Shown here piece after piece: positions 3,445-46,383 of a stretch of DNA of 55,124 nt. The DNA comes from a virus. Its lineage: Duplodnaviria; Caudoviricetes. The notes under the pieces are model-generated. The model searched no databases. It saw only the letters and a program-made list of their open reading frames with translations, and was not told the origin of the DNA. The first letter of the stretch is position 1. Each line of letters begins with the position of its first letter. Both the position numbers and the translations under genes were made by a program. The stretch is from positions 1 to 55,124 of IMG/VR virus record IMGVR_UViG_3300021957_000047. One strand, written 5' to 3'.

Positions 3445-3895
3445 ATGCTTGCTCTACCTCTATGCTACATTTACGAAGAAATTCTACTCCGTCCTCGTTT
3501 CGGTATTTATTTTTGTAATAGACAGACGTGATTCCACTGGTATATATAAGTTTCGCACAGTCTAAACATGGCGCATGGGTTATATACATCGTACTGTTTT
3601 CGCCACTTTCATTCGATCTTGCTAACTTAGCGATAGCATTTGCTTCGGCATGAATCACTTCTGGCTTAGTCTTAGTGTCAGTGTATATATCAATGTCATT
3701 TGGGTGCACCTTGAAGTGTGGCTCGTTGATGACATCTTCACACTCATTAGACCAACCAGAAGGCATACCGTTATAGCCAATAGAAATGATCCGATTGTCT
3801 TTTACAACAATCGAACCAACCTGTAATCTCTTGGCTGAAGACAGAGAAGCGAACCTCTCTGCCGTATCCATATAAGCGTGTTGCCACTTATCCAA
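3434..3895 (-). CDS. cd: dCMP deaminase
   Basis: GYNG, HAEANA, APCLDC motifs; probable TTG start at 3895. Confidence 0.93.
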   Translation of the reverse strand: MDKWQHAYMDTAERFASLSSAKRLQVGSIVVKDNRIISIGYNGMPSGWSNECEDVINEPHFKVHPNDIDIYTDTKTKPEVIHAEANAIAKLARSNESGENSTMYITHAPCLDCAKLIYTSGITSVYYKNKYRNEDGVEFLRKCSIEVEQAYDQ

Positions 3896-5093
3896 AGTTA
3901 TATGCCTCATTCCAATCGCCTTTGAGACCTGCAACTTCATATTCTGTTACACGGTTTTCAAAGAAGTTGGTATGATCTGCACCATTTAGAATCCATTCTA
4001 ACCACGGTAGTGGGTTGTCTTTTACTTTGAAGTTAGGTTTCATGCCTAGCTGAATCAAACGTCTGTCGCTAATATATCGTACATACTGCTTGACTTCGTT
4101 AGACTCTAGACCTTCGATCTCACCCATATCGTATGCTAGATCAACAAACTTGTCTTCTAGCTTTACTGCGTTGCGTGACATCTCGTAGATATCTTTCTTG
4201 AAGCTATCGTCTACAATGCGTGGATGCTCCTTACAGAATGTCTTGAATAACTTAGCGATACCCTCGACATGCATTGACTCATCACGAATCGACCACTCGA
4301 CAACTTTACCCATACCCTTCATCTTACCGTAACGCTGAAAGTTCAGTAGCATTACGAATGATGCAAACAATGCAACACCTTCGTTCATTACTGACTTAGC
4401 AAGGGCAAGACCTAGACCACGCATTGTATTGACATCTGAGTCCATGATAAAATCAATCTTATCAGCCATCTCTTGATACTCAAGGAATGCGTGATACTCA
4501 GAGTCAGGTAATCCTAGCGTTTCATTCAATAGTGCATATGCTCTCTGGTGAATACCTTCACGTGTAGCGAATGAGCCTAGCATGTTACGAACTTCGTTGT
4601 TCTTGAATTTAGGAATGAACTGGTCAAAGTAGTTCTGTCCAACAGCAACGTCTGACTGTGTGAAGAGGCGAAGAATGTTTGTCACATATTCTTTTTCAAC
4701 CTCTGTCATCTTGCCACCTTTCCAATCAGTGACATCTTCTCCCAGATCAATCTCATCTTCGATCCAGTGTGCTTTCTCATGGCGTGTAGTCATCTCTACT
4801 GCCCATGGATAATGAAAGGGCTTATATGTTTCAGAAAACTCTAGCAGACCACCGCCAGCTTTCTTTAGTAAAGTACTAGCCTGTGACATCAAATCATTAT
4901 ACGTACCGATCAGTTTGTCGTTGATAAAGATTTGGGGTACAGACCTAGCATTAGGCATCTTCTGATAGAATGCCATGCGCTCTTCTTCACTGTCTAGTTT
5001 GATCTCAGTGTAAGTTAGGCTATGTGTCGTAAACCACGCTTTCGCTTTCTCGCAGAAAGGGCAGTTCGACTTCGAATAAATTAGTACGTCCAT
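3888..5093 (-). CDS. nrdB: ribonucleotide reductase class Ia beta subunit with N-terminal glutaredoxin domain
   Basis: N-terminal CPFC...SVPQIFI...IG glutaredoxin domain, then FTQSD, EGIHQRAY, EG, WSIRDESMH, NFFENRVTEY. Confidence 0.93.
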   Translation of the reverse strand: MDVLIYSKSNCPFCEKAKAWFTTHSLTYTEIKLDSEEERMAFYQKMPNARSVPQIFINDKLIGTYNDLMSQASTLLKKAGGGLLEFSETYKPFHYPWAVEMTTRHEKAHWIEDEIDLGEDVTDWKGGKMTEVEKEYVTNILRLFTQSDVAVGQNYFDQFIPKFKNNEVRNMLGSFATREGIHQRAYALLNETLGLPDSEYHAFLEYQEMADKIDFIMDSDVNTMRGLGLALAKSVMNEGVALFASFVMLLNFQRYGKMKGMGKVVEWSIRDESMHVEGIAKLFKTFCKEHPRIVDDSFKKDIYEMSRNAVKLEDKFVDLAYDMGEIEGLESNEVKQYVRYISDRRLIQLGMKPNFKVKDNPLPWLEWILNGADHTNFFENRVTEYEVAGLKGDWNEAYNFG

Positions 5094-5121
5094 TTTTTCT
5101 CCCAATGTATCATTCCTCTTT

Positions 5122-5697
5122 TTAGATTGACATTTGTAAATTTGCATCAGCATGACGTTGTTCATCTTCCCGAACTTTTATAATCATGTCTGACAGTTTA
5201 GCATCATCTGGTAGACTGTAATACTCTTTTGCCATTTTTGGACAAGGAGCATTATATATCTTACCTGATTGTATTCTATTCAAATACTGCGAATAGCTTA
5301 TCACCGCTTCTTGTTCGAAGTAGTGAATCATTCTGTGGCACGTCTTCGGAAAGAAGATATACAACAGAAGGTAATAGTGCCAGAATAAGAACTGAGCGAT
5401 AAAGATCAATAGTCTCTCTACCCAGTTTGGATTAGCAATCTCAATGAAGAACATCAAATGCATTCTCTCATTTTCTGCTTCTGCTAGTAACTCACGGATA
5501 TCTGGACCGTATCCTTTCTTAGCTTTACGTAGTGACTTTAGATGTATCCACATTCCTGCTACCATGCCTGGCACACCAGCAATTGTTTCTAATACAACTG
5601 CTCGGTGACCATAACGTTTAGCAAAGAATGTGTCCGCAAAGAAGCGAAACATCATTGTCATACCTTTAGCAAAGTAATCACTTATTATCCCTGACAT
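5122..5697 (-). CDS. aox: alternative oxidase (AOX, diiron ubiquinol oxidase)
   Basis: LETIAGVPGMV, EAENERMHL, FEQEAVISY, REDEQRH. Confidence 0.9.
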   Translation of the reverse strand: MSGIISDYFAKGMTMMFRFFADTFFAKRYGHRAVVLETIAGVPGMVAGMWIHLKSLRKAKKGYGPDIRELLAEAENERMHLMFFIEIANPNWVERLLIFIAQFLFWHYYLLLYIFFPKTCHRMIHYFEQEAVISYSQYLNRIQSGKIYNAPCPKMAKEYYSLPDDAKLSDMIIKVREDEQRHADANLQMSI

Positions 5698-15246: not shown

Positions 15247-18200
15247 TTAGTATTTTACGATCTTATTAGGCGTCTTGAAATCTTTCTTACGCATGATCGT
15301 TTTGTTTACTACTTCAAATTCATTCTTTGCTTTGTCGTAGTTGATGACTACAGGCAAGTTCAAGTCTGCTTGAATATCTTTTAGCACTGCTTCAGAGTCA
15401 CCTAGTTGTTTGATATCTTTCGCCTTGTTCTTAGCAACCTTCTTGAAGAAACGCTGTAACTCAGGAATAGAAATCTTAGGGTTGTTTCTATCATCGTTCA
15501 TACGATCAGCAAAGTGACGTGTAAATTCTACGTCTACGCCAAACTTGTCTAGCAGTCTATCAGCAAACTTTTCGAGGTCACTGATTTGCTTCTGTGATAC
15601 ATCTTCGTTGAATTGCTTGAAGCCTTCACGTTCACTGATTACAGATTCGAACATATCATCTAACTCAAGTTCTTCACGCTTGCCCGCATACTGTCTTAGT
15701 CTTCTCTCACGATCTGCTTCTCTACGCTTACGATCATCATCAGTCTGCTTTTGACCAATCTTCATCTTACGTATGTTACGCTCACGCTCAACGTTCTGCT
15801 TGTGTCTCAGATCCTCTTTCTGCTTATCAGTCATCTTAGACATTGGCTTAGGCACTGGTCCTTCGCTCTCTGATACGCTTTCACCAGGAGTATCTTTCTT
15901 GTAACGCTTAGTTAGTTTATCTGTGCCTCTATCGCCAGCACCACCCTCTTCAAAGACATACTCTTCGCCTAGCATTTTGTGTAGTACTTTACCGTCTACA
16001 TCTTTATACGTTCTAGCAATCTGTGCGGCATAGTATTCAGAACTATGTCTCATGCCAGTCTTCTTGGCTTTTGCCTCTTTCTTCTTGCGATCAATAACAC
16101 TCTTCAGTGTATTCAATGCATGGTCATACATCTTTTTGTTGACTGACACAGACTTGATTTTATTAGACATGTATCCTTCGAACATATCTTCAAACTCTTC
16201 GTCTAACTTTTCTTTCTTCTTCTTAGCAATCGCAATAGCGGCTTGCTGTGCTGGAGATACTGCTTCGTTCTTAGGCACACAGTTAGGTACTAGCTTGCCA
16301 CCTTTCTTTTTCATGCCACGCTTTTCGTGTGTATCCCAACATGGATCATCTTCAGTGATAATCTTTGTCTTCTTATATGACAGTGACCCATCTTTCTTCT
16401 TATCGATAGGTGACTCTACTTCTTCTTTCTTAGAACTGCCACGTACTTTAGCGGCAAGGTCTGCGTCTGCTTTACCCCATGTTCCAGATGATTTAGTAAC
16501 AAATGAATTTACACGTGCAAAACCCCATTGCTGTGGAGTAGTACCTGGTCTATGTCCAGTTCTCCATGCGGCAACGCCTCTGTTGTACACTTGACGTAAA
16601 ATGCCAAGTGGCATACCAGACTTCTCTGCTTTTGCTTTCAGACCTGCATCGCCCTTTGCTTCACTCAGTTCTACTGAATCAGCGATATCACTTGTCACTT
16701 CTTCGATGAATGCTAGTAATGCTTCATCAGTATCAAACTCTTCTTTCTGTAGATCACGAATCTGCCTACGTAAACCACGTGACTTTACTGCGTCTAGTTC
16801 TTTATCGTGTTCACGCTTCATGTTCTCACGTTCAGACTTGTGCTGTGATCTCAAACGCTCTTCTGCTTTGTTCTCATCAATAACTTTATTCTTGATCTCT
16901 GCTTTATCTGGTGTATCACCAGCTTCAGCATTCTTCTTTCTGAAAATCTTGAATCGACCATCAGTCTTCACACTGCCGTCTTTCTTCTGTGCAGAGTGAA
17001 ACTTAGATAATGGTATAAGTTCTTCACCATACATATCTTTGAATTTCTTTGTGTGCTTAGATGGCTTAGTCTCAGCAGTTGCGTCACCAGGTGCTGGCTT
17101 GTATGCCGCTGGATTATCATCGTCCATCTTTGTACCCTTCTTGAAGTGGGCATCACGCTTATCTTTTGTTGACTTAGATAGACCTTTGTAGTAGACAGCT
17201 GGCTGTGTGCCTTTCTTGTCTTTGATATCTGGGTCTTGACCTACAGTTGGCTCTTCGATGAATAGATCGAAATGCTCATCTAAGTTATACTCTTCGCTTA
17301 CCTTTTTGCCTTGTACTCTAGCAATATCAGCACGGCGAACTTTAGGTAGAAGTTTCTTAGCGATACGATCAATAACTGCTTTACGCTTTGCTACTTTCTG
17401 ATCGATCATCATCTTCTCGGCAGTAGAGAGTTCGCTATAACGCTTACCCTTATCTCCTGCAACTTTGCCACGAATGATTGCGATTGCCTTCTTACGTGCT
17501 TTCTTCTGTAATCTATCTTTGGTAGCAACTCGCTTCGACATTCTCTTACGGGCAGCGGCAATCTTAGACTTATACTTACGCATAGTCATGGCACGTTGTC
17601 TACGTTGTGCGAATGATAGAATTGCTTCGTCTAGTTCTAACTCTTCTGAAATCTTCATGCCACCACGTACCATGTCGTATACGTCTTTAGCGTTTGCTTT
17701 CAGTTTCTTAGGTAGACCTTTAGAAAATGACTCCATGTCACCATCTTTTGCCAATGCCCTCATTTTAGAGGCTGACATACCTGTCACATCATCGGCATCT
17801 GGGTCTCGGTCACCAGCAGAAACAACCTTGATACTATCAAAGCTGTAATCTTTTCCGTTATATTTGTTTAGTAGATCATCAAAAGTTTTTACACGATCTG
17901 AGCCAACTACAAGAACAATGTTCTTATACTTTTTCTGTAGTTCTTGTGCGGCTTGAATAATCGTCTTTGATCTAGACTTACGAACTATCTTGCCAAACGC
18001 TTTCGTTGCAAGCATGTATTTGTCATCGTAAGTAAGGGGATTCTTTTTTGCGTCTTGCGAATGCGTCAGAAATAGAATAGGATCTCCACCTTCTGAACGT
18101 GCGACTGAGTTGATTTTGTTGACTAGTTTTTCATGGCCAACAGTGATGGGATTCATACGACCCCAACCAATCACCGCTGTTTTCCCAGGAGCTTCTTCTA

Positions 18201-18357
18201 GCTTGGGCTTGAGTTCAATCGTATTTTTGACGAGAATTTCATCAGCATCCTCACCCTTCTTTGCCTTCTTTGGCTCGGGCTTCTTTTTCTTCGGTTGCTC
18301 TTTTTCAACTGATTTTTCGTTTTCGGCCTCTACAGCCTTATCTTCTTCTTTATCCAT
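15247..18357 (-). CDS. 1036-aa multidomain late protein: HxGH nucleotidyltransferase followed by many small modules
   Basis: GRMNPITVGH, VVGSDR, MSASKMR in about aa 58-235; later modules separated by acidic LxE linkers. Confidence 0.8.
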   Translation of the reverse strand: MDKEEDKAVEAENEKSVEKEQPKKKKPEPKKAKKGEDADEILVKNTIELKPKLEEAPGKTAVIGWGRMNPITVGHEKLVNKINSVARSEGGDPILFLTHSQDAKKNPLTYDDKYMLATKAFGKIVRKSRSKTIIQAAQELQKKYKNIVLVVGSDRVKTFDDLLNKYNGKDYSFDSIKVVSAGDRDPDADDVTGMSASKMRALAKDGDMESFSKGLPKKLKANAKDVYDMVRGGMKISEELELDEAILSFAQRRQRAMTMRKYKSKIAAARKRMSKRVATKDRLQKKARKKAIAIIRGKVAGDKGKRYSELSTAEKMMIDQKVAKRKAVIDRIAKKLLPKVRRADIARVQGKKVSEEYNLDEHFDLFIEEPTVGQDPDIKDKKGTQPAVYYKGLSKSTKDKRDAHFKKGTKMDDDNPAAYKPAPGDATAETKPSKHTKKFKDMYGEELIPLSKFHSAQKKDGSVKTDGRFKIFRKKNAEAGDTPDKAEIKNKVIDENKAEERLRSQHKSERENMKREHDKELDAVKSRGLRRQIRDLQKEEFDTDEALLAFIEEVTSDIADSVELSEAKGDAGLKAKAEKSGMPLGILRQVYNRGVAAWRTGHRPGTTPQQWGFARVNSFVTKSSGTWGKADADLAAKVRGSSKKEEVESPIDKKKDGSLSYKKTKIITEDDPCWDTHEKRGMKKKGGKLVPNCVPKNEAVSPAQQAAIAIAKKKKEKLDEEFEDMFEGYMSNKIKSVSVNKKMYDHALNTLKSVIDRKKKEAKAKKTGMRHSSEYYAAQIARTYKDVDGKVLHKMLGEEYVFEEGGAGDRGTDKLTKRYKKDTPGESVSESEGPVPKPMSKMTDKQKEDLRHKQNVERERNIRKMKIGQKQTDDDRKRREADRERRLRQYAGKREELELDDMFESVISEREGFKQFNEDVSQKQISDLEKFADRLLDKFGVDVEFTRHFADRMNDDRNNPKISIPELQRFFKKVAKNKAKDIKQLGDSEAVLKDIQADLNLPVVINYDKAKNEFEVVNKTIMRKKDFKTPNKIVKY

Positions 18358-20901: not shown

Positions 20902-22131
20902 TTACTTCTGCCAGCCTTTGATTATTTCTGGAGAAAAGTTAGCATTACTAAACTGTAGTCTGTCTACTAGTTTGACTGCATTTTTACCCATACGATCAAT
21001 AGCGACAAAGCCTTCTTGCTCTGTTACTTTGAATCCATCTGCGGTCTTTAGAAACGTACCGATGCTCTTAGTCTTATCTAGTTTACGTATTAGCATAAGC
21101 TTGGCTTCAACGATTAGATTATAGAGTTCGAACAATGCCACAATCTGAGACTTAGGTACGTTAGCGAAGTACGACAGAATGTCTTTGCGCTTCTCTACTC
21201 TACCAGCTTTACTCTTCGCAGTCTTTAGCTTGTCGATCTCTTTTTGGTAGTAGTCATGAATATAGTCCATGAGTTCTGTGACAAACCTATTAGGGTTTTT
21301 GATTTGCTCACCCTGTCTTACTTTAGAGTTGATGAATGTCTTCACTCTCAACAATCTATCGGGATGATTCGTAATACCGTCAAACGTACCACGCTTGATA
21401 GTATTGAATTTCTTACCAGCGGCAGATAATACCTTAGTGATATCTGCGGTCTCTTTCTTGGTCATGCTTGCATTACCAGAGACATCTTTATACACTGCGT
21501 CTACTGACCAGACTTGTTTGCTTTCTTTGAGTTTGCTCGCAATCTCTTCTCCAAAACTTGCTGACATTTCCTCAAAGCTATTTCCTCTGTAAGTAGTGTG
21601 CCATACCACACCGATGCTGGATCGCATGATTCTCTTAGCAAGGTCGCTTTTCGTTGGTATCGCATAAACAATGGTGTTAGGATGGAAAGTAATATACGAT
21701 GTTCCATCAATAGTTTCTTTTCTAATATCTTCTTTCGCATATAGGAAATCACCTTGGACAACTCCTTCAATTCCTAGAGATGGAAAGTGCTCCAACGCTA
21801 GTTTCAATTTTGTATTCAAATCACCAGATGTGTCTGCATCTATGTCTGCATCACTCTTATACACTTTGGGATTCTTGTTGAAGATACCTTTCTTGGCAAC
21901 AAAAAACTTGCCGTCAGAGGGATCTTTACCTGCAAAGATAGCGGGAGCTCCGTCCCATTTGACAGTTAGATTGACTGGTGCCTTTGCATCACCTGCCATC
22001 ATGTCACGCAATGAACGTAAGTAGTTTATACTTTGTCTTGCGCCAGTTACACCAGCATTGAGGACATTATCCTCTAAATGCTCCATGTGTACATTCTTTT
22101 CTTCAGTAAGATAGTTCGTTAGTCTCATCAT
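20902..22131 (-). CDS. covalent nucleotidyltransferase / ATP-dependent ligase-like protein (DUF6267-like)
   Basis: Motif I VKWDG, motif III-like QGDFL, motif IV EGFV, motif V VKL. Confidence 0.65.
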   Translation of the reverse strand: MMRLTNYLTEEKNVHMEHLEDNVLNAGVTGARQSINYLRSLRDMMAGDAKAPVNLTVKWDGAPAIFAGKDPSDGKFFVAKKGIFNKNPKVYKSDADIDADTSGDLNTKLKLALEHFPSLGIEGVVQGDFLYAKEDIRKETIDGTSYITFHPNTIVYAIPTKSDLAKRIMRSSIGVVWHTTYRGNSFEEMSASFGEEIASKLKESKQVWSVDAVYKDVSGNASMTKKETADITKVLSAAGKKFNTIKRGTFDGITNHPDRLLRVKTFINSKVRQGEQIKNPNRFVTELMDYIHDYYQKEIDKLKTAKSKAGRVEKRKDILSYFANVPKSQIVALFELYNLIVEAKLMLIRKLDKTKSIGTFLKTADGFKVTEQEGFVAIDRMGKNAVKLVDRLQFSNANFSPEIIKGWQK

Positions 22132-23802: not shown

Positions 23803-24015
23803 CTATCTCTCCAAGATAACTAAGTCACCGAAGTAACTATCAAACGTTAGTAAAAGGTCTTCGTAATCACCCGCAGTCATTTCAGAACATACGGTCTGCC
23901 AATCGTTACCAGTCTTATGAGATAACTGTCTGGCTAGTTGTAACAGGTAATACGAATTACCATCTGGGCCCGATAAGTCGATAATCAATTCCTTATCAGT
24001 CTTCTCCCTGATCAC
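23803..24015 (-). CDS. hypothetical early protein
   Basis: 70 aa; IDLSGPDGN motif. Confidence 0.7.
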   Translation of the reverse strand: MIREKTDKELIIDLSGPDGNSYYLLQLARQLSHKTGNDWQTVCSEMTAGDYEDLLLTFDSYFGDLVILER

Positions 24016-24155
24016 GACATTTGACCAGATTGAACCATTGCAACTCCCTGTTGACTGTACATAGAGTGAACAGCACGTGACTGCTCTTCAGTCAAATACT
24101 CGTAACGCTCTTTTTCGCCAGTCTCGACACTAATCAAAGCTTCTACAAACCACAT
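24012..24155 (-). CDS. 47-aa hypothetical early protein
   Basis: Hand translation MWFVEALISVETGEKERYEYL...; AAGGA SD; GTGA overlap with the next gene. Confidence 0.65.
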   Translation of the reverse strand: MWFVEALISVETGEKERYEYLTEEQSRAVHSMYSQQGVAMVQSGQMS

Positions 24156-24186
24156 AATATATTTCCTTTCATGAACTTACTATACT

Positions 24187-24220
24187 AATATAGTACATCT
24201 GTACCAGATTGTCAACCCCT
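24187..24220 (-). promoter_or_regulatory. early promoter, AGGGGTTGACA type
   Basis: AGGGG-TTGACA-17-TATATT. Confidence 0.8.
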
Positions 24221-24410
24221 AAAACAAATAATTTTGAATTTCTTCGTAAACGAAATCCGCATTCTCATTTATGGCGTCAAGTTGTTCTTCAGTAGCTGGC
24301 TCACCATCTACTAAGGCTTCTTCGATATAAGCATCGCAGAAGTCTGGATAGTCTTTCATATCCAAATCACCAATGTATTGTACATCAACTTTTGTAAAAT
24401 CAATATTCAT
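24219..24410 (-). CDS. small acidic early protein
   Basis: Start MNIDF; DMKDYPDFCDAYI. Confidence 0.7.
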   Translation of the reverse strand: MNIDFTKVDVQYIGDLDMKDYPDFCDAYIEEALVDGEPATEEQLDAINENADFVYEEIQNYLF

Positions 24411-24441
24411 AATATAACTCACTTTCTTTATGTTATACTGT

Positions 24442-24475
24442 ACTGTACAACACATTTTCGGAAATGTCAACCCCT
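24442..24475 (-). promoter_or_regulatory. early promoter, AGGGGTTGACA type
   Basis: AGGGG-TTGACA-17-TACAGT with an extended TG. Confidence 0.75.
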
Positions 24476-24716
24476 AAAATGCACTATTTTCAAAAAAATT
24501 ATCAACTACTTTATCCATTTCTCCGAATGGACCAATAGAGTTCTCCTCTTCTTGGGCATCTTGGATATCCATTAGATCAACTTTCAGTTCAGCTAACAGC
24601 ACCTTAGTTTCTTGAGGTATCGCACCTGGACGAATACTTTCTATAGTAGCGAAGGCATTCTGAGCGGCACTAATCGCCTGCATCTTCTGTTGAACGTTTT
24701 TCATTTTCATCTCCAT
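24474..24716 (-). CDS. hypothetical early protein
   Basis: 80-aa ORF between two promoters. Confidence 0.65.
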   Translation of the reverse strand: MEMKMKNVQQKMQAISAAQNAFATIESIRPGAIPQETKVLLAELKVDLMDIQDAQEEENSIGPFGEMDKVVDNFFENSAF

Positions 24717-24732
24717 TTCAATTTACTATGCT

Positions 24733-24765
24733 ATGATAACAGGTTTGGCAGAAATGTCAACCCCT
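24733..24765 (-). promoter_or_regulatory. early promoter, AGGGGTTGACA type
   Basis: AGGGG-TTGACA-16-TATCAT. Confidence 0.65.
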
Positions 24766-24945
24766 TTTTGAAAATATTTCACACATAAATTGATCTATTT
24801 CTTCAGTTGTCATGGTAGTACCAGATAACCTCTGGGCCGTAACTAACATCCTTTCTTTAGAGTACTCTTCCATTGCACACTCGAGGATACGTGCTTCTTC
24901 GATTGCCTCAATGATCTGGTCTACTAATTTTTCGCTCTTTGCCAT
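24757..24945 (-). CDS. hypothetical protein
   Basis: 62 aa with a GGGAG SD. Confidence 0.65.
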   Translation of the reverse strand: MAKSEKLVDQIIEAIEEARILECAMEEYSKERMLVTAQRLSGTTMTTEEIDQFMCEIFSKRG

Positions 24946-25240
24946 AATATGACTCCCATAATACTTTTACACTTGAGAATGTGTGTGTCGGGTAATCCTC
25001 TAACCTATTACCTTCACGCACATCTTCTAACGAGATAAAGCTTTTGTATCTATGCTCTATCTTATCCCAATATTGTATCATACGATTGCGTAGCTTGTCA
25101 AGTACTTTCTCATCTAAGAGAGTTTCGCCTAATTCATCTTTTGCGTACATTGCCATAATGTACCAAGGTATTATTAGATTCATATCATCATCAACTATCT
25201 GTAGACAAGCATAACTAAGATTGTCTTTTGGATCGTCCAT
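24908..25240 (-). CDS. hypothetical protein, weakly resembling the NAD-ligase Ia subdomain
   Basis: WYIMAMYA...LLDEKVLDKL...WDKIEH; degenerate motif. Confidence 0.55.
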   Translation of the reverse strand: MDDPKDNLSYACLQIVDDDMNLIIPWYIMAMYAKDELGETLLDEKVLDKLRNRMIQYWDKIEHRYKSFISLEDVREGNRLEDYPTHTFSSVKVLWESYYGKERKISRPDH

Positions 25241-25268
25241 GTAGTTCCTTCTCTGAATTTCGTGTTTG

Positions 25269-25276
25269 TATAAATA
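25269..25276 (+). promoter_or_regulatory. T4-type late promoter on the plus strand
   Basis: Exact TATAAATA, opposite to all flanking genes. Confidence 0.75.
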
Positions 25277-25277
25277 A

Positions 25278-25440
25278 GATCGGGTGCGTGTTAGTACGTG
25301 TAAACAACGTAAGAGGCAAGTGTTTGAGAAATCATACCAGGAATAGCAGACGTAACATCAAGAATGTCCGTGGGGTTCGGGTCTGCCACGTATCAGTCCA
25401 GTAAAGAGGGTGATTATTCTAGCGAGTAGTCGCCTTTTTT
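25278..25440 (+). ncRNA. candidate structured non-coding RNA of about 160 nt
   Basis: Bounded by a late promoter and a plus-strand terminator; several nested helices; no SD-led ORF. Confidence 0.65.
25403..25440 (+). terminator. plus-strand intrinsic terminator
   Basis: AAAGAGGGTGATTATTC-TAGC-GAGTAGTCGCCTTTTTT: 17 contiguous pairs, 5 of them G-U, ending in U6. Confidence 0.7.
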
Positions 25441-25626
25441 ATTGGGCTGATAAAAAACTCCCAACCCCATAAAACTAGGGCTCCAGCCCCCGAAACCATT
25501 ACCAAGATTTAGCTGAGTGCATAACTCCCTTGCTTGTGTTTTATTACTAAACTTCTGCATAATCAGACTACTTCTTTTCTCCACTACCATGTGGATACTA
25601 TTATCACTCTTGATAACATACGACAT
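25414..25626 (-). CDS. hypothetical protein
   Basis: 70 aa coupled to gp41; LNLGNGFGGWSPSF. Confidence 0.65.
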   Translation of the reverse strand: MSYVIKSDNSIHMVVEKRSSLIMQKFSNKTQARELCTQLNLGNGFGGWSPSFMGLGVFYQPNKKGDYSLE

Positions 25627-27044
25627 TACTTGAATCCCTCAAACTTAGGCTTAGACTTACCCTTGAAACTGAGGACAGTATCGCCATCATTTTCACTGCT
25701 CATTCTTTGACCAACGGGTGTCTTGTTCATCACTGGACTGTCATCCATAAGACCTTGTTGGGCACTCTCTTCAGCATCAAATAAACGCATCTTCGATCTG
25801 TCGATACCGACAACGAAACGCTTGTGAGCATTGGTATCGCCCCAACGATTTTTGAGTTGCTTGATCATCAACTGACCAAGGGATTCTAATTCTTCTGTAG
25901 AGATCAAACCAAACATAAAGTCAGCCGTTGCGGGTAGACCAAATGATTCTGAGGTGTCTTCTAAGTTCAAGTCAGAACTACTGAACCCAGTTCGATTAGT
26001 CTGAGTAGCAGACATGATAGGCACATTGAACTCAACAGCAAGACCACGTAACTCTTCTGCGATTGCTTTGATTAGTGTGTAAGAGTTTACACTACCACCC
26101 ATGCGAATACGAGAAGACATACAGATGTTCAGATAATCGATGTAGATCATATCTGGCTTGAAGTTACGTTTTAGTTTCAATTCGTTTAGCAGATGTCGGA
26201 AGTGATTAGAACCAGCACTAGCAGTTGGATATTCTTTTACGATCAACTTACCAGTAGACTTATTCTTCACACGACCGAGTCTTTTCTCGTAGACATCACG
26301 TGGTACTTCACGCAACTGGTCTACAGTCAAGTCTAATAGATTGGCATCGATACGCTCTGCAATACGTTCTTCTGCCATTTCCATTGTGATATAGAGTACA
26401 TTCAATCCGGCAGTCAGATTGGCTGCCGCACAGTGGGTCATGAACAATGTCTTACCAACACCTGTACCTGCAAGCGCAACGCTGAGTGATTTACGTGACA
26501 CACCACCTTTAGTGATAACGTTCATCAAATCCAGATCGAATGGAATCTTATCTTCTTTAGTGTGGTAGAAATTGTAACGTTCATCAGAATCATCTAAGTA
26601 ATCGTGACCCACACTGTTATCAAAGGATACACCCAGAGCCTTCTCAAGAAGTTCTGGGATAGCACCCTTATCTAATTGTTTGTGATTACCATCTAGCACT
26701 AGAATGGACTCACGAACAGCATTATAGATGGCTTTGTCTTGACAGAACTTTTCAGTCTTGTCAACCAGCCAGTCGAGGTCAGTCTTATCGTCATACGATA
26801 AAGAATCAATCATATCATTGATTTGCTTGTATTGCTCCTCATTGATATTAGATTTCTCATCGATAGACACCTTCAATGCACCCTTGGTAGGGATACTATT
26901 GTAACTGTCTACGTACTGAGCGACCTCGACAAATACAGTCTGGTGTGACTGCTGGTCGAAATAATCATTTTGGAGAAACGGCAGAACCTTTCGTGCATAT
27001 TCATCATTACTAATAAGTCCCGCTAAGATTGTTTCTTCGATCAT
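25626..27044 (-). CDS. gp41: replicative DNA helicase
   Basis: AGTGVGKT, TMEM, IDYLNI, SATQTNR, ESFGLPATAD, KNR. Confidence 0.95.
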   Translation of the reverse strand: MIEETILAGLISNDEYARKVLPFLQNDYFDQQSHQTVFVEVAQYVDSYNSIPTKGALKVSIDEKSNINEEQYKQINDMIDSLSYDDKTDLDWLVDKTEKFCQDKAIYNAVRESILVLDGNHKQLDKGAIPELLEKALGVSFDNSVGHDYLDDSDERYNFYHTKEDKIPFDLDLMNVITKGGVSRKSLSVALAGTGVGKTLFMTHCAAANLTAGLNVLYITMEMAEERIAERIDANLLDLTVDQLREVPRDVYEKRLGRVKNKSTGKLIVKEYPTASAGSNHFRHLLNELKLKRNFKPDMIYIDYLNICMSSRIRMGGSVNSYTLIKAIAEELRGLAVEFNVPIMSATQTNRTGFSSSDLNLEDTSESFGLPATADFMFGLISTEELESLGQLMIKQLKNRWGDTNAHKRFVVGIDRSKMRLFDAEESAQQGLMDDSPVMNKTPVGQRMSSENDGDTVLSFKGKSKPKFEGFK

Positions 27045-27163
27045 TCCTCTTTTAGCTCCTCTAACAATTGCTGTATTTCGATTAGTTTTTCAACTAGTGC
27101 TTTGGTGTAATCAATGTCTTGGACACTAGCTGTGTCCAATTCAATTTCAAGCTTCAGTTTCAC
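27041..27163 (-). CDS. 40-aa hypothetical protein
   Basis: Hand translation MKLKLEIELDT...LKEE; overlaps the uvsX end and gp41 start. Confidence 0.55.
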   Translation of the reverse strand: MKLKLEIELDTASVQDIDYTKALVEKLIEIQQLLEELKEE

Positions 27164-28214
27164 TTTCAACTTCCTCAATCTCATCGGAGATCAACGCACC
27201 GTTAGCCATACTGTATCGTTTACGAATAGCATCAGCTAAATCGGTTTTAGTCAACATCATCTTCCAGAAGTCACCGTTGACAGCAAACTCTTTCGCTCTC
27301 ATAAGTTTATCTGAAAGTACCTCACCAGTACTTGGATTTACAGCCTCGTACCAGCCCACTTTAGGTTTATTGATATAACCTAACTTCTCACTAATATCAA
27401 GTAGTCCAGACCACTTACTTATGCCACCCTCAAAGGTAACTGTAATCGGGATCTTAGACTTCTCACGCACATGACGTGATTTCTCGATATTGATGACAAA
27501 GTGATAACCTGCAATCTCGGTGCCTTCTTTCTCTTGTTGGCGACCAATGATCCAGATAGCATCTGAACTGTAGTAAGAACCAGTACCGCCAGACACGATG
27601 TCTTTAGGGAACATACCGATCTCTTTGTACGTGTGGTTGACACATACTAACGGGATGTCTTTTAGGTTCAAGTGTGGCGTGACGATACGGAACAAAGACT
27701 TCAATTGCTTTGCACGTGACATATCTGCCACTGACTTACCATCCAGTGCATCATCTACTTCTTTCTTCGAAGCAAGGTTACCGATAGAGTCGATAATGAT
27801 AACGACTTTCTCACCCTTGTCAATTTGGTTCAATTGAGTTGTAATATCAAACTTGAGTTGCTCTACGTCAGTAATAGGCGTATGCAACACTCTGTCAAGA
27901 TCAATACCAAAACTCTCAAAGTATGACTGTGGAGTACCAAACTCCGAGTCATAAAACAGTACGACAGCATCATCGTATTTTTTCTGATATGCGGCAGCCA
28001 TCATCAGCGCAAAGGCTGACTTGAAGTGTTTCGATGGTCCAGCAAGCATCAGAAGCCCAGGAACAAGGCCACCATCAATGCGACCAGATAGTGCTACGTT
28101 TACCATAGGTACTGGTGTAGTAGCCATCTCTTTTTTGCCATAGACTTTAGAGTCCATAATTGGCGCAGTCTGCTTGATAGAACTGTTCTTCATTAGTTTT
28201 TCAATTAGCGACAT
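27147..28214 (-). CDS. uvsX: RecA-like recombinase
   Basis: AGPSKHFKS, YDSEFG, IDSIGNLASKKE, DMSRAK. Confidence 0.95.
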   Translation of the reverse strand: MSLIEKLMKNSSIKQTAPIMDSKVYGKKEMATTPVPMVNVALSGRIDGGLVPGLLMLAGPSKHFKSAFALMMAAAYQKKYDDAVVLFYDSEFGTPQSYFESFGIDLDRVLHTPITDVEQLKFDITTQLNQIDKGEKVVIIIDSIGNLASKKEVDDALDGKSVADMSRAKQLKSLFRIVTPHLNLKDIPLVCVNHTYKEIGMFPKDIVSGGTGSYYSSDAIWIIGRQQEKEGTEIAGYHFVINIEKSRHVREKSKIPITVTFEGGISKWSGLLDISEKLGYINKPKVGWYEAVNPSTGEVLSDKLMRAKEFAVNGDFWKMMLTKTDLADAIRKRYSMANGALISDEIEEVESETEA

Positions 28215-28276: not shown

Positions 28277-28540
28277 TCAACTATTATAGATTTCGAACAG
28301 CTTGGCTTCGAATTCTTCGATCTTCGCTGTTCTGTTTGGCCAGAGAATGTACTCTTTCTCTGGGTTCTTTTTCAGATTAGCCAGCAACGGTGCAATAGCA
28401 TTGTACAACTTGTCTAATGTTTCTTGCGTTGCTTCTGCCGTGCTTGATGCGGCGGCTACCTTTTCTTCGACAGCCTTGACTGCCTGTAATTCGTCTTCGT
28501 CTACGGCTGTAAAGCCGAAATCAAATATATCATCGCTCAT
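28277..28540 (-). CDS. hypothetical protein
   Basis: FDFGFTAVDE...NPEKEYILWPNR; ATGA overlap with gp43. Confidence 0.75.
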   Translation of the reverse strand: MSDDIFDFGFTAVDEDELQAVKAVEEKVAAASSTAEATQETLDKLYNAIAPLLANLKKNPEKEYILWPNRTAKIEEFEAKLFEIYNS

Positions 28541-31050
28541 GAGAAAAAATCCTCCAATGTGTTAGTCTCTTCTAAGTTCCAGTTGATAGCATCACTGACC
28601 AGCTTTAGTGGCTCTTTGAATGTCTTATCGAACTGAGTTTGATAATCTATGTATGTGTCTAGATCGAACTCTTTAGGCAAGAACTGAGGAAACGAGATGA
28701 CGTTCTCTCTCAGTGGATTAGGAGTTTTGAGATAGCAGAACTTTACTTTGCTACCATCTTTGATACCCTCCATTACTCTATCAAGTCCAGTCTCTTTCAT
28801 TTTGTGGTTGAACATAATCGCACCACGCACATGTATAGGTGTGCCTTTCTTGTACATAGTGGTCGTATCTTTCCACTTTGTTAGATCGGATACGCCACGT
28901 GGAAACGAGACGCTTTCGGCAGGTAGGCTAGTAAACTCTTCATAGAAGTCAGACACGAACTTCTGTAACTCACTCTCACTACCACTCAAAATAATCTGGT
29001 ACGCTTGCTTGAACTTATCACGCACTACTTGAGGTGTCGATGACTTGACTGCCTCAATGCCCATGATCTTTAGTTTAGGCACTGCGTACTGCACACCTTC
29101 ATTATTATGTACGTTCAGAATGTACCGCTTCTTAGCAGTCCAAACACCACGATCAGCAATAGCTTCACGTGCCATCTCCATACGATTTTCGTATGCATTC
29201 ATTCGGTCAAACAACACAGCATAAGAACGCTCTAGAACTGGCTCAAACTTTTCTTGGCAGGCTTTGTCAATAAACTTCACTGGATCAGAAGGGTTTACCA
29301 TCTTGACCAGTGGTGCCATGTCAACATAAAGAGAGTCAGTATCGATAGCAATTACATAATCTTCTTCATCGGTCTTGAGTAGTTTGTTCATGTATTTGTT
29401 CATGGCTTTCTCAGCCCATCGAACAGATAGTTGACCAGATAATGTAATGCCTTCAGCAATGGACATTTCGAAGTAACGGAAGTATTGATTGCCGAGTGCG
29501 CCATAAAGCGAGTTGAGCAAAATCTTGACCGCTTGCTGTGTGTTGTTTAGTCTATTTATCTCTCGCTTCAAGTCGTGGGAGCCATCAGACTGAGATTCTT
29601 GCTGTAACTCAAGCATCTTGTTCTTAGTCTCACGGCGTTCATTGTACAGATCAATAATGATCTCAGGCATGAAACCACGTTTGTCTTTACGATATGTAGA
29701 TCCATTTGCGGCGATAGCGACACCGTGATTCAACTGTGCATCGGATACAGGAGTATCATTTGCGAGATAAGTATCAACACCCATGGGATACATATCAGCC
29801 GGGGTGCGTATCAACGTCTCGGGCGACATGTTGTACTGTACAATTAGGTTAGGGTACAGACTGTTCAAGTCAAACGAGGTAATCCATTCACTCATGCCAA
29901 CACGTGGGTCTTTCACATAGCCACCAGGATATGGATTCTTGTGCTTATCTTTGTTTGGTGGTACAGCAATCTTACGTTCAGACAAGTAGCGATAGATGAT
30001 AGAATCCCATATGCCCGTAGTACCGAACACATCTGGGTAATTCACACCACCTTTGTATGCGATTACGAGAGCCAAGTCCATAAGACCAGTCTCTTTGTCA
30101 ATGCGGTCAACTAGATCAACGTCTCGTATGTTATAGTCGATGAACTTCTGGTGATTCTCTTTGTATAGATTGTGTAGAGTACCGAACTCTTCATAAGATA
30201 TCTTCTTCTCACCGAGAACTGTATGAGCAATATGGTTGAGTGCATAACTCTCTTGATTACCATACGTGTAGCCAAACTTCTGAAACAGATCGTAGTAGTC
30301 AACTTGGGCAATGCCGTAAAGTTCATATGCATCCATCGACTTACCCTTGATGCCGATCTGACGGTGCTTGTATATCTTCCATGGTGAATAGAGTTTGGTA
30401 GTCTCTTCGCCACATACTTTGAGTGTACGATTGATCATGTACGGGATATCGAACAAGCGAATGTTCCAACCAGTGATGATGTCAGGCGTGTTATTCTGCC
30501 AGAAGACCAGAAACTTTTCGATCAGGTCTTTCTCATTGTCACAGTGACGATACTGTATCAACTCAATACTATCTAGTTCGCTCTTGGTAGAGTCATAATG
30601 ACCTAGACCCCATACATGATAGACTTTGCTTTTGCTGTCTTTGTATGCGATAGAGATGATAGGATGATCAGCTTGCTCTGGGTGAGGAAAGCCATCGTCT
30701 GATGCAACCTCGATATCGATATTACCAACACAGATATGTCGCAACTTATAATCGATCTCACCAGGGAACGCCTTCTCAATGAACTGTGCCACGAAGTTGT
30801 TGTTGCCGTGAACTTTGAAGTTGTCTACGTCTGCGTAACTCTTAGAGAATTCTTGCGCTTCAGACATACTATCGAACTGCATAGGTTCAACCGCACTACC
30901 GTCTAGTGCTTTCCACTCAGACGATTTGTTAGATGGGACGAATAGTGTTGGCTTGAATGGCACTCTCTTGTGAATGCGTTGACCGTCGGCTGTGTAGCCA
31001 CGGAATAGCATCTTGTTGCCATATCTATGTACGGAAGTGTAAAAACTCAT
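28537..31050 (-). CDS. gp43: family B DNA polymerase
   Basis: DIE exonuclease motif, DLNSLYP, KILLNSLYG, DTDS, KKRY; C-terminal LEDFF clamp motif. Confidence 0.97.
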   Translation of the reverse strand: MSFYTSVHRYGNKMLFRGYTADGQRIHKRVPFKPTLFVPSNKSSEWKALDGSAVEPMQFDSMSEAQEFSKSYADVDNFKVHGNNNFVAQFIEKAFPGEIDYKLRHICVGNIDIEVASDDGFPHPEQADHPIISIAYKDSKSKVYHVWGLGHYDSTKSELDSIELIQYRHCDNEKDLIEKFLVFWQNNTPDIITGWNIRLFDIPYMINRTLKVCGEETTKLYSPWKIYKHRQIGIKGKSMDAYELYGIAQVDYYDLFQKFGYTYGNQESYALNHIAHTVLGEKKISYEEFGTLHNLYKENHQKFIDYNIRDVDLVDRIDKETGLMDLALVIAYKGGVNYPDVFGTTGIWDSIIYRYLSERKIAVPPNKDKHKNPYPGGYVKDPRVGMSEWITSFDLNSLYPNLIVQYNMSPETLIRTPADMYPMGVDTYLANDTPVSDAQLNHGVAIAANGSTYRKDKRGFMPEIIIDLYNERRETKNKMLELQQESQSDGSHDLKREINRLNNTQQAVKILLNSLYGALGNQYFRYFEMSIAEGITLSGQLSVRWAEKAMNKYMNKLLKTDEEDYVIAIDTDSLYVDMAPLVKMVNPSDPVKFIDKACQEKFEPVLERSYAVLFDRMNAYENRMEMAREAIADRGVWTAKKRYILNVHNNEGVQYAVPKLKIMGIEAVKSSTPQVVRDKFKQAYQIILSGSESELQKFVSDFYEEFTSLPAESVSFPRGVSDLTKWKDTTTMYKKGTPIHVRGAIMFNHKMKETGLDRVMEGIKDGSKVKFCYLKTPNPLRENVISFPQFLPKEFDLDTYIDYQTQFDKTFKEPLKLVSDAINWNLEETNTLEDFFS

Positions 31051-34785: not shown

Positions 34786-35181
34786 TTACTTTTTCTTGCC
34801 GATACTGTACTTCGCTACCAGTTCCCACTGGTCCTTCTCTTTGTATGGCAATATTTTGATTTGCGACAAGGGTGCCGCTGGCTCATCTGCTATTGATGCA
34901 GACATAGTTTTGATCAGTCCCCATTCTTCAAGAAGTTTCACAATGGTATTTCTACGTGCTTTATCTTCATCAGAGAAGTTGTTTATCTTGCCGTCAAGCA
35001 TAAACAGTTCTTTGAAGTGTACGATATAGTACTTACCTTGTTTGTGAAGAATGTGACAGGATTGATATAATTTCTTGTCTTTTCTCGAAGCGATTCCAAT
35101 ACGAGTCAATGTCTCTTTGATTTTTAGAAAACTTTCTTCGCTTGGTAGTTCGACTTCGACAAGTCTCTCTACGATATTCAT
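34786..35181 (-). CDS. regA: translational repressor
   Basis: FLKIKETLTRIGIAS, QSCHILHKQGKYYIVHFKEL. Confidence 0.96.
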   Translation of the reverse strand: MNIVERLVEVELPSEESFLKIKETLTRIGIASRKDKKLYQSCHILHKQGKYYIVHFKELFMLDGKINNFSDEDKARRNTIVKLLEEWGLIKTMSASIADEPAAPLSQIKILPYKEKDQWELVAKYSIGKKK

Positions 35182-44750: not shown

Positions 44751-45814
44751 AGATTGATAGCCTCACTATATAAATCACCTAGAAATTTCTCTAGTTTCAT
44801 CTTGTCACCCTTCACTTCCAAATTCTCAAGATACTGACGCAATATGGTCATCGTGTCCTGAGCCTCATCAATCAGTTCTGATTCGTCTACAAGGTCTAAG
44901 TTCTGATGATCATCAACAACTTTGATGTCGGCAGGGTTAGCAGATTGTAGCCTATCAAGGAACAAATCGAAGATGTATGGATTCTCCTTATTAGATACTA
45001 TAACTTTTATGAAGGTGTTTGTCAAGAGCGAAGTGTCTAAATTTGCAACATCTTCTATAGTCATGTCAGCATCATTGTACATAATCTTATGGAATAGACT
45101 GTACGGGTTGCGTACATGCTCCATAGTGCGTGTCTCAGTATCGAATACACTAAAGCCACGTTTCTGTTCGTGATCAGACCAAGTCATCTCATATTGAGCG
45201 CCTAGATAAGTGATGTTACCTAGCTTAGATGGCTGATGAAAGTGACCAGAGTATACTGAGTCAAACTTTTGGAAGATGTTACGATCTAGTCCAGTCTCAC
45301 ATATATGACCTTTATCCATCTCATAACCTACGATCTCAAAGTGACCCATGAGTACTTGCGCTTTAGTATCAGCAAAAGCCTTCATGCTCTTATCGTAGTT
45401 ATCTGCACACATCCATGGTGCTAACATAACCTTACACCCGTCCATGTCGAGTTCTACTGGCTCTTCCCAGTATAGATGTAAGTTCTCGTAGTTAGACGTG
45501 CCATACAATTGTCGTAGGCTGTTCACTGAGTTAGTATTCTTGAAGTATGTGTCATGATTACCAGCAACGATATAAAGCTGGATATCTTCTTCTGCACACA
45601 CCTTCATGAAGTTTTCTTCTAAGTTCTTCGCTGTAACAAAATTGATATACTTACGTCTATCTGTCAAATCTCCTAAGTGAAAGATCGTCTTGATACCGTT
45701 TTCACGTAGATAGGGGAAGAATACCTCACGATAGAACATATGCATATGCTCTGCAATGGCGGCGTTGTCGTTACGAGCGCCCCAGTGTGTGTCGTTGAGT
45801 ATCGCTATCTTCAT
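44747..45814 (-). CDS. gp47: recombination nuclease subunit (Mre11/SbcD-like)
   Basis: DTH, GD, GNHD, GHFH. Confidence 0.95.
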   Translation of the reverse strand: MKIAILNDTHWGARNDNAAIAEHMHMFYREVFFPYLRENGIKTIFHLGDLTDRRKYINFVTAKNLEENFMKVCAEEDIQLYIVAGNHDTYFKNTNSVNSLRQLYGTSNYENLHLYWEEPVELDMDGCKVMLAPWMCADNYDKSMKAFADTKAQVLMGHFEIVGYEMDKGHICETGLDRNIFQKFDSVYSGHFHQPSKLGNITYLGAQYEMTWSDHEQKRGFSVFDTETRTMEHVRNPYSLFHKIMYNDADMTIEDVANLDTSLLTNTFIKVIVSNKENPYIFDLFLDRLQSANPADIKVVDDHQNLDLVDESELIDEAQDTMTILRQYLENLEVKGDKMKLEKFLGDLYSEAINL

Positions 45815-46383
45815 TCTTTTTCCTCTTTTTTATCCTCATCGATAAACTTCTCAAGACCCTTTCGTGCCTTGGTAGTCTGCTTCTTCTTAGACTCCATGCG
45901 CTTCTCATAGTTAGCAACGAAGTCAGTCATGTAGTCATTGTTCAGGTCGACATAGTTAGCATCGCCCTCAGCATCACCATCTTTGTCTACTAGTGTGCCT
46001 GTGAGCATAGAGTTTTCTGTCACCTTATGTCTAATATACACTTGTTTCTTCTCTTTGTCAATACGTCTGAGAAAGGCATACCAGATTATTTGTGTGAAAT
46101 ATGCAAAGGGGTTCTTAGATTTTGTTGGATCAAAGTTGCCTAGTGCTTGGATAGCGTTCTCTAGGCCATCACTTACCATCTCTTCTCTGTAGGTGTAACC
46201 TGAGAAGTTTGGCTTAGTAGATAATCTGTTCGAAATCTGATAGATACACTCACCGATGTAGTTCGGTATCTGAGGATTTGGATCACCTGAAGCCTCTGCT
46301 TCTTCGCATAGCTTCTTGTAGTTGATAATCGCTTCCAGAAACTCTGCGTTGTTTACGTAATTTTTAGAGGCTCTTTTTTTCAT
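45811..46383 (-). CDS. gp55: late transcription sigma factor
   Basis: NYVNN, NFSGYTYREEM, NPFAYFTQI. Confidence 0.93.
   Translation of the reverse strand: MKKRASKNYVNNAEFLEAIINYKKLCEEAEASGDPNPQIPNYIGECIYQISNRLSTKPNFSGYTYREEMVSDGLENAIQALGNFDPTKSKNPFAYFTQIIWYAFLRRIDKEKKQVYIRHKVTENSMLTGTLVDKDGDAEGDANYVDLNNDYMTDFVANYEKRMESKKKQTTKARKGLEKFIDEDKKEEKE

Follow-up and report, generated by a model that had tools for sequence, protein, structure and literature searches.

T4-like phages rank among the most abundant viruses of oceans and lakes, with gene sets that are generally regarded as well charted. Stand-alone folded RNAs of 100–200 nucleotides (nt) that act through protein binding are exemplified by phi29 pRNA, 6S RNA and the bacterial Y RNAs, and orphan candidates for structured RNA motifs have reportedly come out of another comparative-genomics study. 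T4 itself carries two small, stable-looking RNAs, rnaC and rnaD (species 1 and 2; 139 and 119 nt in NC_000866). Furthermore, a set of 8,495 candidate structured RNAs (csRNAs) from IMG/VR is set out in PMC10690425. The locus considered here is positions 25269–25441, plus strand, of a 55,124-base DNA stretch from an uncultured marine T4-like phage (an IMG/VR record with a completeness estimate of 31%), which is referred to in full as the window. These positions almost certainly constitute a real, independent gene for a structured RNA. The best overall explanation is a late, stand-alone, trans-acting structured RNA gene whose product binds a conserved partner, and this explanation is held with slightly more belief than doubt. 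The RNA appears to represent a large undescribed family that is restricted, as far as searched, to uncultured aquatic T4-like phages.

The RNA gene is contained in a 173-bp gap between two open reading frames (ORFs) of 70 and 110 amino acids (aa), both on the minus strand, which carries 61 of the 65 called ORFs of at least 75 aa in the window. It forms a complete small unit: an exact TATAAATA box, a core of about 115 nt and, at the end, an 18-bp hairpin that runs into U6. An initial annotation of this DNA had proposed such a plus-strand unit between two minus-strand genes downstream of gp41. All of its features were found where it had placed them, including the exact late box at 25269–25276, and its interpretation is supported and essentially right, with a decoy, a protein sponge or a virion-packaged RNA being functions that it put forward as possibilities. 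The parts of the unit are as follows.

25269–25276, plus strand: T4-type late promoter box TATAAATA, an exact match; the predicted RNA start lies at about 25282–25285
25282–25397, plus strand: RNA core, about 115 nt (about 157 nt with the terminator), a four-way junction of helices P1–P4 in which P4 branches into P4a and P4b
25283–25290/25387–25394, plus strand: helix P1
25295–25299/25307–25311, plus strand: helix P2
25311–25320, plus strand: joiner J2/3, AAGAGGCAAG, unpaired in the model; A25311 closes P2 and G25320 abuts P3
25325–25327/25332–25334, plus strand: helix P3, extended by 25322–25323/25336–25337
25338–25345, plus strand: joiner J3/4, CAGGAAUA, containing GGAA
25346–25351/25381–25386, plus strand: helix P4
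25355–25358/25364–25367 (25355–25367), plus strand: P4a, an optional hairpin that marks the long form of the RNA
25368–25370/25378–25380, plus strand: P4b, a 3-bp stem closing the UGGGGUU loop
25371–25377, plus strand: the 7-nt P4b loop, UGGGGUU
25402–25441, plus strand: intrinsic terminator (predicted fold) of 18 pairs, five of them G–U or U–G, with T6 at 25435–25440

The fold is specific to the plus strand. Positions 25277–25441 reach −49.7 kcal/mol on that strand (z −3.49; 1 of 200 shuffles is as good), and −29.0 kcal/mol on the minus strand (z −0.55; 54 of 200 shuffles are as good). The six body helices that had been proposed are all present in the minimum-energy fold, and each is kept through compensatory changes in relatives. 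The alternative 3′ fold offered beside them, CGTGG...CCACG with a T-loop-like loop, is rejected because its stem would disrupt the covarying P4b, P4 and P1. The terminator had been described as a 17-bp hairpin with U6 at 25403–25440; the hairpin, the U6 and the five wobble pairs were borne out, and the stem is counted here as 18 pairs over 25402–25441. As had been claimed, the stem is intact on the plus strand only, since the five G–U or U–G pairs become A–C mismatches on the other strand. The hairpin contains G+C pairs and runs directly into the U-tract, as in an intrinsic terminator, and it overlaps the final 27 nt of the opposite-strand 70-aa ORF.

Relatives were collected by two pattern scans of viral contigs, which gave at least 117 and at least 120 stretches; family counts refer to the matches listed. 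The first scan was built on two blocks (GGGTGCGTG and AAGAGGCAAG). One of its matches (L100) arose by chance, and the resulting alignment, A1, holds 62 distinct cores spanning 112–131 nt. A covariance model, R1, was built from these 62 sequences. The second scan was built on the 3′ half (GGTGGGGTTCC, GGAA and GGCA) and gave A2, 82 distinct rows aligned to R1. Over both sets there are at least 128 distinct cores; the carriers span 37–61% G+C, and the RNA measures about 95–130 nt across the family.

Conservation and covariation are strong in both alignments. In A1, 94.4% of 1,790 cells hold standard pairs, compared with 27–48% when the 3′ partners are slid by 1–3 columns. Changes on both sides occur at 20 of the 29 pairs (278 cells), and none of 500 column shuffles reaches any of five measures. 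P2, P4, P4a (4 of 4 pairs) and P4b are richly covarying, with the closing pairs of P4b appearing as CG/AU/UA, GC/CG/AU and GC/CG/UA, while P1 is variable on one side only because the search pattern had fixed its 5′ strand. In A2, 96.0% of cells are paired (30–49% when slid), and compensatory changes occur at 25 of the 29 pairs, all six of P1 included.

Homologues were likewise found downstream of gp41. Among 80 loci fetched via gp41, blastn detects the gap sequence in the nine closest, at 70–87% identity over the longest aligned stretches, and in every one of these the RNA sequence lies downstream of gp41 on the opposite strand. Their alignment shows an invariant TATAAATA, the fixed blocks GGGTGCGTGT, AAGAGGCAAGTGT, AGGAATAG and TGGGGTT, visibly covarying stems, and terminators that differ in sequence and share one shape. 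R1 gives 16 matches at E < 1 in the same 80 loci, 15 of them at E < 0.01; relatives outside its training set score up to 63.6 bits, and 97 of the first 100 second-scan stretches are matched at E < 0.01. The window scores 106 bits (E 5e-21, 25282–25395), a value that is not independent, as the window is among the training sequences. The window has all the marks of the R1 family: the junction, the GGCA and GGAA joiners, the UGGGGUU loop, the late box, the terminator and the position downstream of gp41.

Within the core, conservation is centred on the two joiners around P3 and on one loop of 7 nt; the loops of P2 and P3 differ in length between copies, and P4a can be dispensed with. The joiners, AAGAGGCAAG and GGAAUAG, are purine-rich and near-invariant. 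Both the UGGGGUU loop and the GGAA of J3/4 are invariant in 62/62 A1 rows, a set selected on neither, and the GGCA core of J2/3 is kept in 16 of 17 matches found via gp41 alone. A mutual-information scan for pseudoknot or tertiary pairs returned known helices for all of its top pairs and is blind to the UGGGGUU loop because that loop is invariant. A 10-nt, 90% inverted repeat joins the loop region TGGGGTTCGG (25371–25380) to CCCAACCCCA (25460–25469), past the terminator inside the 70-aa ORF; this pairing would be possible only in a read-through transcript and is probably due to chance. Flanking repeats of a mobile cassette were not found, the search returning only two 10-nt, 90% inverted pairs.

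The box TATAAATA occurs nine times in the window, against 3.51 copies expected (2 of 100 shuffles reach nine), and the copy at 25269–25276 is the sole one on the plus strand. As in a T4-type late unit, it stands just upstream of the predicted start, and the phage encodes homologues of gp55 and gp45. The eight remaining boxes (18406, 20811, 23240, 33925, 37730, 49704, 51098 and 52075, all minus) are on the coding strand, several of them just upstream of gene starts: gp23 (51064), gp22 (52039), gp45 (37694) and Hsp20 (33863). This placement fits what would be expected of working late promoters. Because of the late box, the presence of gp55 and the coding-strand position of the other eight boxes, several ahead of head or late genes, the RNA is probably transcribed late in infection. 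Late transcription had also been claimed by the initial annotation; the box and the gp55 homologue are indeed present in the window, and the basis of the claim is sequence rather than timing data.

Promoter and terminator are retained across the family. An exact TATAAATA lies 4–9 nt before the first G of the RNA in 58 of the 60 first-set relatives with enough upstream sequence, and the remaining two carry ACTAAATA. In the second set of 82, the box is exact in 60, has one mismatch in five and two mismatches in 15 (12 of these being ACTAAATA), and is not recognisable in two. The 12 distinct second-set copies in which ACTAAATA replaces TATAAATA (within L258–L357) have it at the same distance from the RNA start, and it may be a variant late box of part of the clade. 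A hairpin with a stability of −8 kcal/mol or better and a run of at least four T at its end follows the core in 62/62 first-set and 81/81 second-set relatives, its sequence varying and its shape kept, after a linker from P1 that varies between about 7 and 15 nt. The family suggests that a T4-type late box can drive non-coding genes, and the same cassette occurs in either orientation.

Two forms of the RNA were distinguished: a long form, as in the window, with P4a, and a short form without it (P4a is a gap in 59 of the 82 distinct A2 rows). Wherever gp41 is in view (55 loci), the RNA is found downstream of it. Long-form copies are opposite in strand to gp41 in 18 cases and share its strand in one; short-form copies share the gp41 strand in 35 cases and are opposite in one. 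Among the gp41-anchored R1 matches, nine are long-type and antisense to gp41, and seven weaker ones (20–64 bits) share the strand of gp41. In these seven the joiners are still AAGAGGCAAG-like and GGAAUAG-like, the GGUGGGGUUCC hairpin is present, and P4a is missing from most. Their P1 strands are different yet complementary, for example AAAUGUG/CACAUUU, GAUAUG/CAUAUC and GCAGC/GCUGC, and each has its own late-type box just upstream (one a TGCTAAATA variant, one a CAAATAAATA variant) as well as a strong terminator. In five of the seven (L024, L029, L066, L020 and L015), the terminator is followed by the ribosome-binding site and start of the next gene. A second late-type box precedes that start in four of those five, and L015 has a different promoter-like stretch there; the sequence of L047 stops at its terminator, and the stretch read for L051 holds no next gene. 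The downstream late genes of short-form loci gave no Pfam family above threshold and are not similar to the 363-aa ORF of the window.

It follows that an RNA "running against the genome", as the initial annotation put it, is a correct description of the window and not a family trait, the short form being on the gp41 strand. Whichever way it points, the unit carries a promoter and a terminator of its own, and so it is not a neighbour's leader and is more than an antisense product. The gene is single-copy, with one R1 match in the record of the window and one each in five long records, among them a record of 164,428 bases at 99% completeness. Among long-form copies (L081–L197 flanks), 21 of 74 have a same-strand TTGACA-like hexamer 14–19 nt ahead of the late box, and some copies may therefore also be read by the host sigma-70 polymerase; the window lacks it. 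An opposite-strand TTGAC, probably the promoter of a divergent gene, is present in 20 of the 74 long-form copies and is also absent from the window (25230–25268).

Comparison with described RNAs supported the earlier statement that the RNA cannot be assigned to a known family. Rfam 15 (4227 models) gave no match at gathering score over the whole window. At E up to 10, positions 24000–27000 gave five weak matches, none of them within 25269–25441 and none to tRNA, tmRNA or YrlA. On 20 family loci there were 32 weak Rfam matches, all far under gathering and mostly over terminators rather than the core. GibS matched two of these 20 loci, but its 35.3 and 24.7 bits fall far short of the gathering score of 115, and it was rejected. 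In the window ARAGORN called neither a tRNA nor a tmRNA. Three family members had no BLAST match among 50,697 GenBank phage records, and R1 found no copy in nine whole GenBank phage records (S-SM2, phiM12, S-SRM01, Melnitz EXVC044M, DLP_6, three AG-345 marine viruses and T4); as a control, the same whole-record search recovered six of six records known to carry the RNA. A pattern scan of one genome each from 185,579 prokaryote species returned 56 stretches, about the number expected by chance, none of which passes R1 at E < 0.01 (the best two of the 56 reach E 0.11 and 0.29). No published description of the family was found in the literature, the catalogue alignments of PMC10690425 being outside this comparison. 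Motif strings of the family had no match in six supplementary files of PMC10690425, a search that did not cover files 1, 2 and 4, which are probably the alignments, and the catalogue may well contain the family.

It is proposed that the phage gp55-directed RNA polymerase would transcribe the RNA gene late in infection and that the transcript would end at the U-tract. The RNA would then act in trans as a folded molecule, in which the joiners (AAGAGGCAAG and GGAAUAG) and the UGGGGUU loop may form a pre-organised surface or pocket. This surface would bind a conserved partner, most likely a phage or host protein and less likely a small ligand. A bound partner is suggested because a fixed junction and loop combined with a free periphery is the pattern of protein-binding RNAs and aptamers. 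Taken by itself, action in trans through the binding of a protein or ligand is a tentative proposal that falls somewhat short of an even chance. Partner binding is favoured over antisense pairing and over control of a neighbouring gene: antisense action, a leader function and pairing with phage mRNAs are disfavoured because the orientation flips, the next gene has its own promoter and complementary sites are not convincingly enriched in the window.

A bolder form of the proposal, which is doubtful, would make the RNA a new class of stand-alone, trans-acting aptamer or catalytic phage RNA, again expressed late. Four invariant G-runs are available (one GG each in GGCA and GGAA, with the loop supplying GGGG), and together with the purine-rich junction they might build a compact core, possibly a two-layer G-quadruplex. 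By capturing a metabolite or a universal factor of host or phage, such a core would time or tune the late phase. If this were true, it would be the first natural phage RNA of its kind and common to a large part of the aquatic T4-like phages.

Public sequencing runs bear on whether the RNA is made. Part of 25000–25700 is present in 20 of 23 listed public runs, which come from 15 studies and eight of which are recorded as RNA. In the metatranscriptome X3, a 157-nt contig covers exactly 25285–25441 with no differences, and there is no cover for 241 and 87 bases on either side. This contig equals the predicted transcript from its start to the U-tract and is a weak hint of transcription. Uncovered stretches in the four contig sets examined, and the shares of sampled words in the other runs, are uninformative.

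Several observations weigh against a late RNA that binds a conserved partner. The four runs examined are assembled contigs of depth 2–6 that may include DNA, and strand, ends, level and timing are not readable from them. The contig of X6, from a related strain with 12 differences, starts at 25279 and continues to 25753, ignoring the predicted end, and the contigs of X1 (24984–25382 and 25406–25556) and X12 (25340–25587) likewise ignore the predicted ends. Partner binding is a proposal drawn from the conservation pattern. The unpaired joiners resemble Shine–Dalgarno sequences (GAGG, AAGGA) and may have a base-pairing role. Part of the reported invariance was built in by the search patterns, namely GGGTGCGTG and AAGAGGCAAG in the first set and GGTGGGGTTCC, GGAA and GGCA in the second, and the alignment of A2 to R1 biases its pair counts towards the structure. 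Finally, no cultured carrier was found among the nine records searched with R1 or by BLAST of the GenBank phages, so there is no link to a phenotype.

Among the other explanations, a trans-acting base-pairing small RNA (sRNA) is unlikely. In this scheme the joiners (AAGAGGCAAG and AAGGAAUAG) or the G-rich loop would pair with pyrimidine-rich targets, the candidates being phage or host mRNAs and the anti-Shine–Dalgarno end of 16S rRNA, and would alter late translation or stability. The joiners are unpaired in the supported fold and nearly invariant, they contain GAGG and AAGGA, and the order of promoter, about 115 nt and intrinsic terminator is the usual layout of an sRNA. The expected targets are nevertheless not conspicuous in the window, the part of the genome (only 31%) that the search for complements covered. 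With up to one mismatch, CTTGCCTCTT occurs six times against 4.56 expected (28 of 100 shuffles reach six). AACCCCA occurs six times against 2.28 expected (3 of 100 shuffles reach six), none of them at a gene start, and both counts include the RNA's own complement. In addition, a whole conserved four-way junction with optional arms exceeds the needs of a seed region. Less probable again is cis-antisense action, in which late transcription against the early gp43–uvsX–gp41 operon would form a duplex with read-through early mRNA and shut off or process these messages. The RNA gene of the window is opposite in strand to all its neighbours, its terminator extends over the final 27 nt of the 70-aa ORF, and this orientation is common to 18 of the 19 long-form loci with gp41 in view. 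However, the short form keeps the same core fold on the gp41 strand at 35 of 36 loci, so that antisense action cannot explain the conserved structure. The difference in orientation between the forms speaks against a leader function as well. The overlap with coding sequence is confined to the terminator (27 nt) and is not a conserved, substantial one, and the covariation reflects selection on the RNA's own fold.

A riboswitch-like element, improbable on present evidence, would use the four-way junction as an aptamer whose ligand controls termination at the next hairpin and hence read-through into the flanking DNA. Its conservation is aptamer-like, the junction being fixed and the peripheral loops variable, every copy is followed by a terminator, and short-form units are followed on their own strand by a late gene. 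In the short-form loci inspected, however, that gene is preceded by a late box of its own beyond the terminator, and the long form has no downstream gene on the RNA strand (there is none on the plus strand in the window). The linker between P1 and the terminator varies from about 7 to 15 nt, and no alternative pairing with the aptamer was seen, by inspection only and with no systematic antiterminator search. No Rfam riboswitch matches, the orientation flips between the forms, and neither a leader arrangement nor an expression platform was recognised. A tRNA-like or T-loop decoy is very improbable: it would require the 3′ part to adopt the CGTGG...CCACG stem with a T-loop-like loop of 7 nt, in imitation of a tRNA or Y RNA. 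The four-way junction is cloverleaf-like, P4 and P4b are stacked, the 3′ strand being paired without a gap across both, and the terminal loop is 7 nt long. This idea, raised by the initial annotation, is not supported, given the ARAGORN and Rfam results above and a stem that conflicts with P4b, P4 and P1, and the UGGGGUU loop lacks the U...A pattern of the T-loop consensus. It is scarcely credible that the locus is no RNA gene at all and consists of a short protein-coding gene or of DNA-level signals only (a promoter and a two-way terminator between operons). Short ORFs do exist (a 20-aa GTG ORF at 25284–25346, a 21-aa ATG ORF at 25364–25429 and a 58-aa TTG ORF at 25228–25404), and many family terminators, with an A-run before and a T-run after the hairpin, could act in both directions. 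Yet no ORF is common to the A1 and A2 relatives. The 20-codon GTG ORF, which the initial annotation had held up as the competing object of conservation, keeps its length in 1 of 62 relatives, its frame ranging from 5 to 43 codons. Core lengths modulo 3 are evenly spread (26/19/17 in A1 and 29/28/25 in A2), and the stop-free frames that frequently cross the core of about 100 nt on both strands, as expected for a short purine-rich stretch, share no start. The fold is strand-specific through its G–U pairs, and neither DNA signals nor coding can be the source of compensatory changes in 20–25 of the 29 pairs.

Genes of the window that bear on the RNA gene are the following.

24908–25240, minus strand: 110-aa ORF on the other flank of the 173-bp gap
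25414–25626, minus strand: 70-aa ORF between gp41 and the RNA gene
25626–27044, minus strand: gp41 DnaB-like replicative helicase (phrog_19, E 1.5e-121), the constant landmark upstream of the RNA gene
27147–28214: UvsX
28537–31050: gp43 DNA polymerase
45811–46383: gp55 late sigma homologue (phrog_234, E 3.8e-61)

The window also encodes the clamp gp45, RegA, gp46/47, UvsW, UvsY and the head genes gp20–gp23. The gp41 proteins of the closest cultured relatives, which are cyanophages and Sinorhizobium phages, are only about 55–58% identical. The 70-aa protein carries the motif LNLGxGFxGWxPxF and is conserved between gp41 and the RNA gene in both orientations of the RNA. By tblastn it is found beside the RNA at 54/117 and 80/120 loci (134/237; 93 distinct ORFs, among the matches listed), and it is also present without the RNA. 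It is a syntenic neighbour that was considered as a candidate partner of the RNA. No Pfam family was found for it, and the Atlas returned only unnamed viral clusters (score 0.83). Its AlphaFold model (mean predicted local distance difference test score, pLDDT, 77.9) has three strands and a helix, and fold matches to this model are too weak for inference, with E no better than 0.73 in Foldseek and Z scores of 4.9 at best (YaiA) and 4.1 (an AP2 domain) in VIA-align.

The homologue of RegA-type translational repressors (34786–35181, minus; phrog_242, E 1.4e-57) is an RNA-binding protein, and no hint in the sequence ties it to the new RNA. Another IMG/VR contig (L098, 51,292 bases) has an RNA unit identical to that of the window. 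It is a close strain and a distinct record, because its 110-aa neighbour is only 97.3% identical. Elsewhere in the window, the product of 3888–5165 (minus) combines a ribonucleotide reductase small subunit (residues 113–424) with an N-terminal thioredoxin-like domain (residues 19–93) and appears to be a fused redoxin-NrdB. A 1036-aa protein (15247–18357, minus) has a cytidyltransferase-like N-terminal part that also matches phrog_455, and phrog_455 further matches a 409-aa DUF6267 protein at 20902–22131 (minus); these are two related late-region genes with no assigned function.

These RNAs form a new family within a known general class, that of stand-alone structured phage RNAs without assigned function; the family is widespread in uncultured aquatic T4-like phages, and its secondary structure is well determined. 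The gene is invisible to annotation pipelines, yet at least 128 distinct cores in uncultured phages keep its fold, promoter, terminator and position, and the degree to which its nucleotides are fixed is typical of RNAs with a specific binding partner. Were the partner identified, the late programme of T4-type infection would gain an RNA component. Small (about 95–130 nt) and rich in covariation, the family is a clean target for structure determination and ligand screening, and the short form provides a natural minimal version. Furthermore, a late cassette that occurs in either orientation is useful for annotating other orphan late units.

The orphan csRNA candidates of PMC10690425 resemble the RNA in their covariation-supported folds, their origin in phages or aquatic metagenomes, their lack of an assigned function and, often, an internal terminator. 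T4 rnaC and rnaD are likewise small, stable-looking RNAs of a T4-type phage. They sit in a tRNA cluster, whereas the RNA described here adjoins gp41 with its own late box and terminator in a window without tRNA. R1 does not match T4 (NC_000866), where with filters off its best score on the rnaC/rnaD stretch is 4 bits; homology to rnaC and rnaD was rejected on this ground and for the different genomic context. With four-way-junction riboswitches such as SAM-I the RNA shares four helices, fixed junction nucleotides, variable peripheral loops and a downstream terminator. It differs from them in having no consistent regulated gene, no aptamer-overlapping platform seen by inspection, no conserved orientation and no model match. 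T4-type packaging is not known to require an RNA. Although the sequence and structure of the RNA do not match the Rfam models of phi29 pRNA, 6S RNA or the bacterial Y RNAs, it is their kind of mechanism that is judged most likely here.

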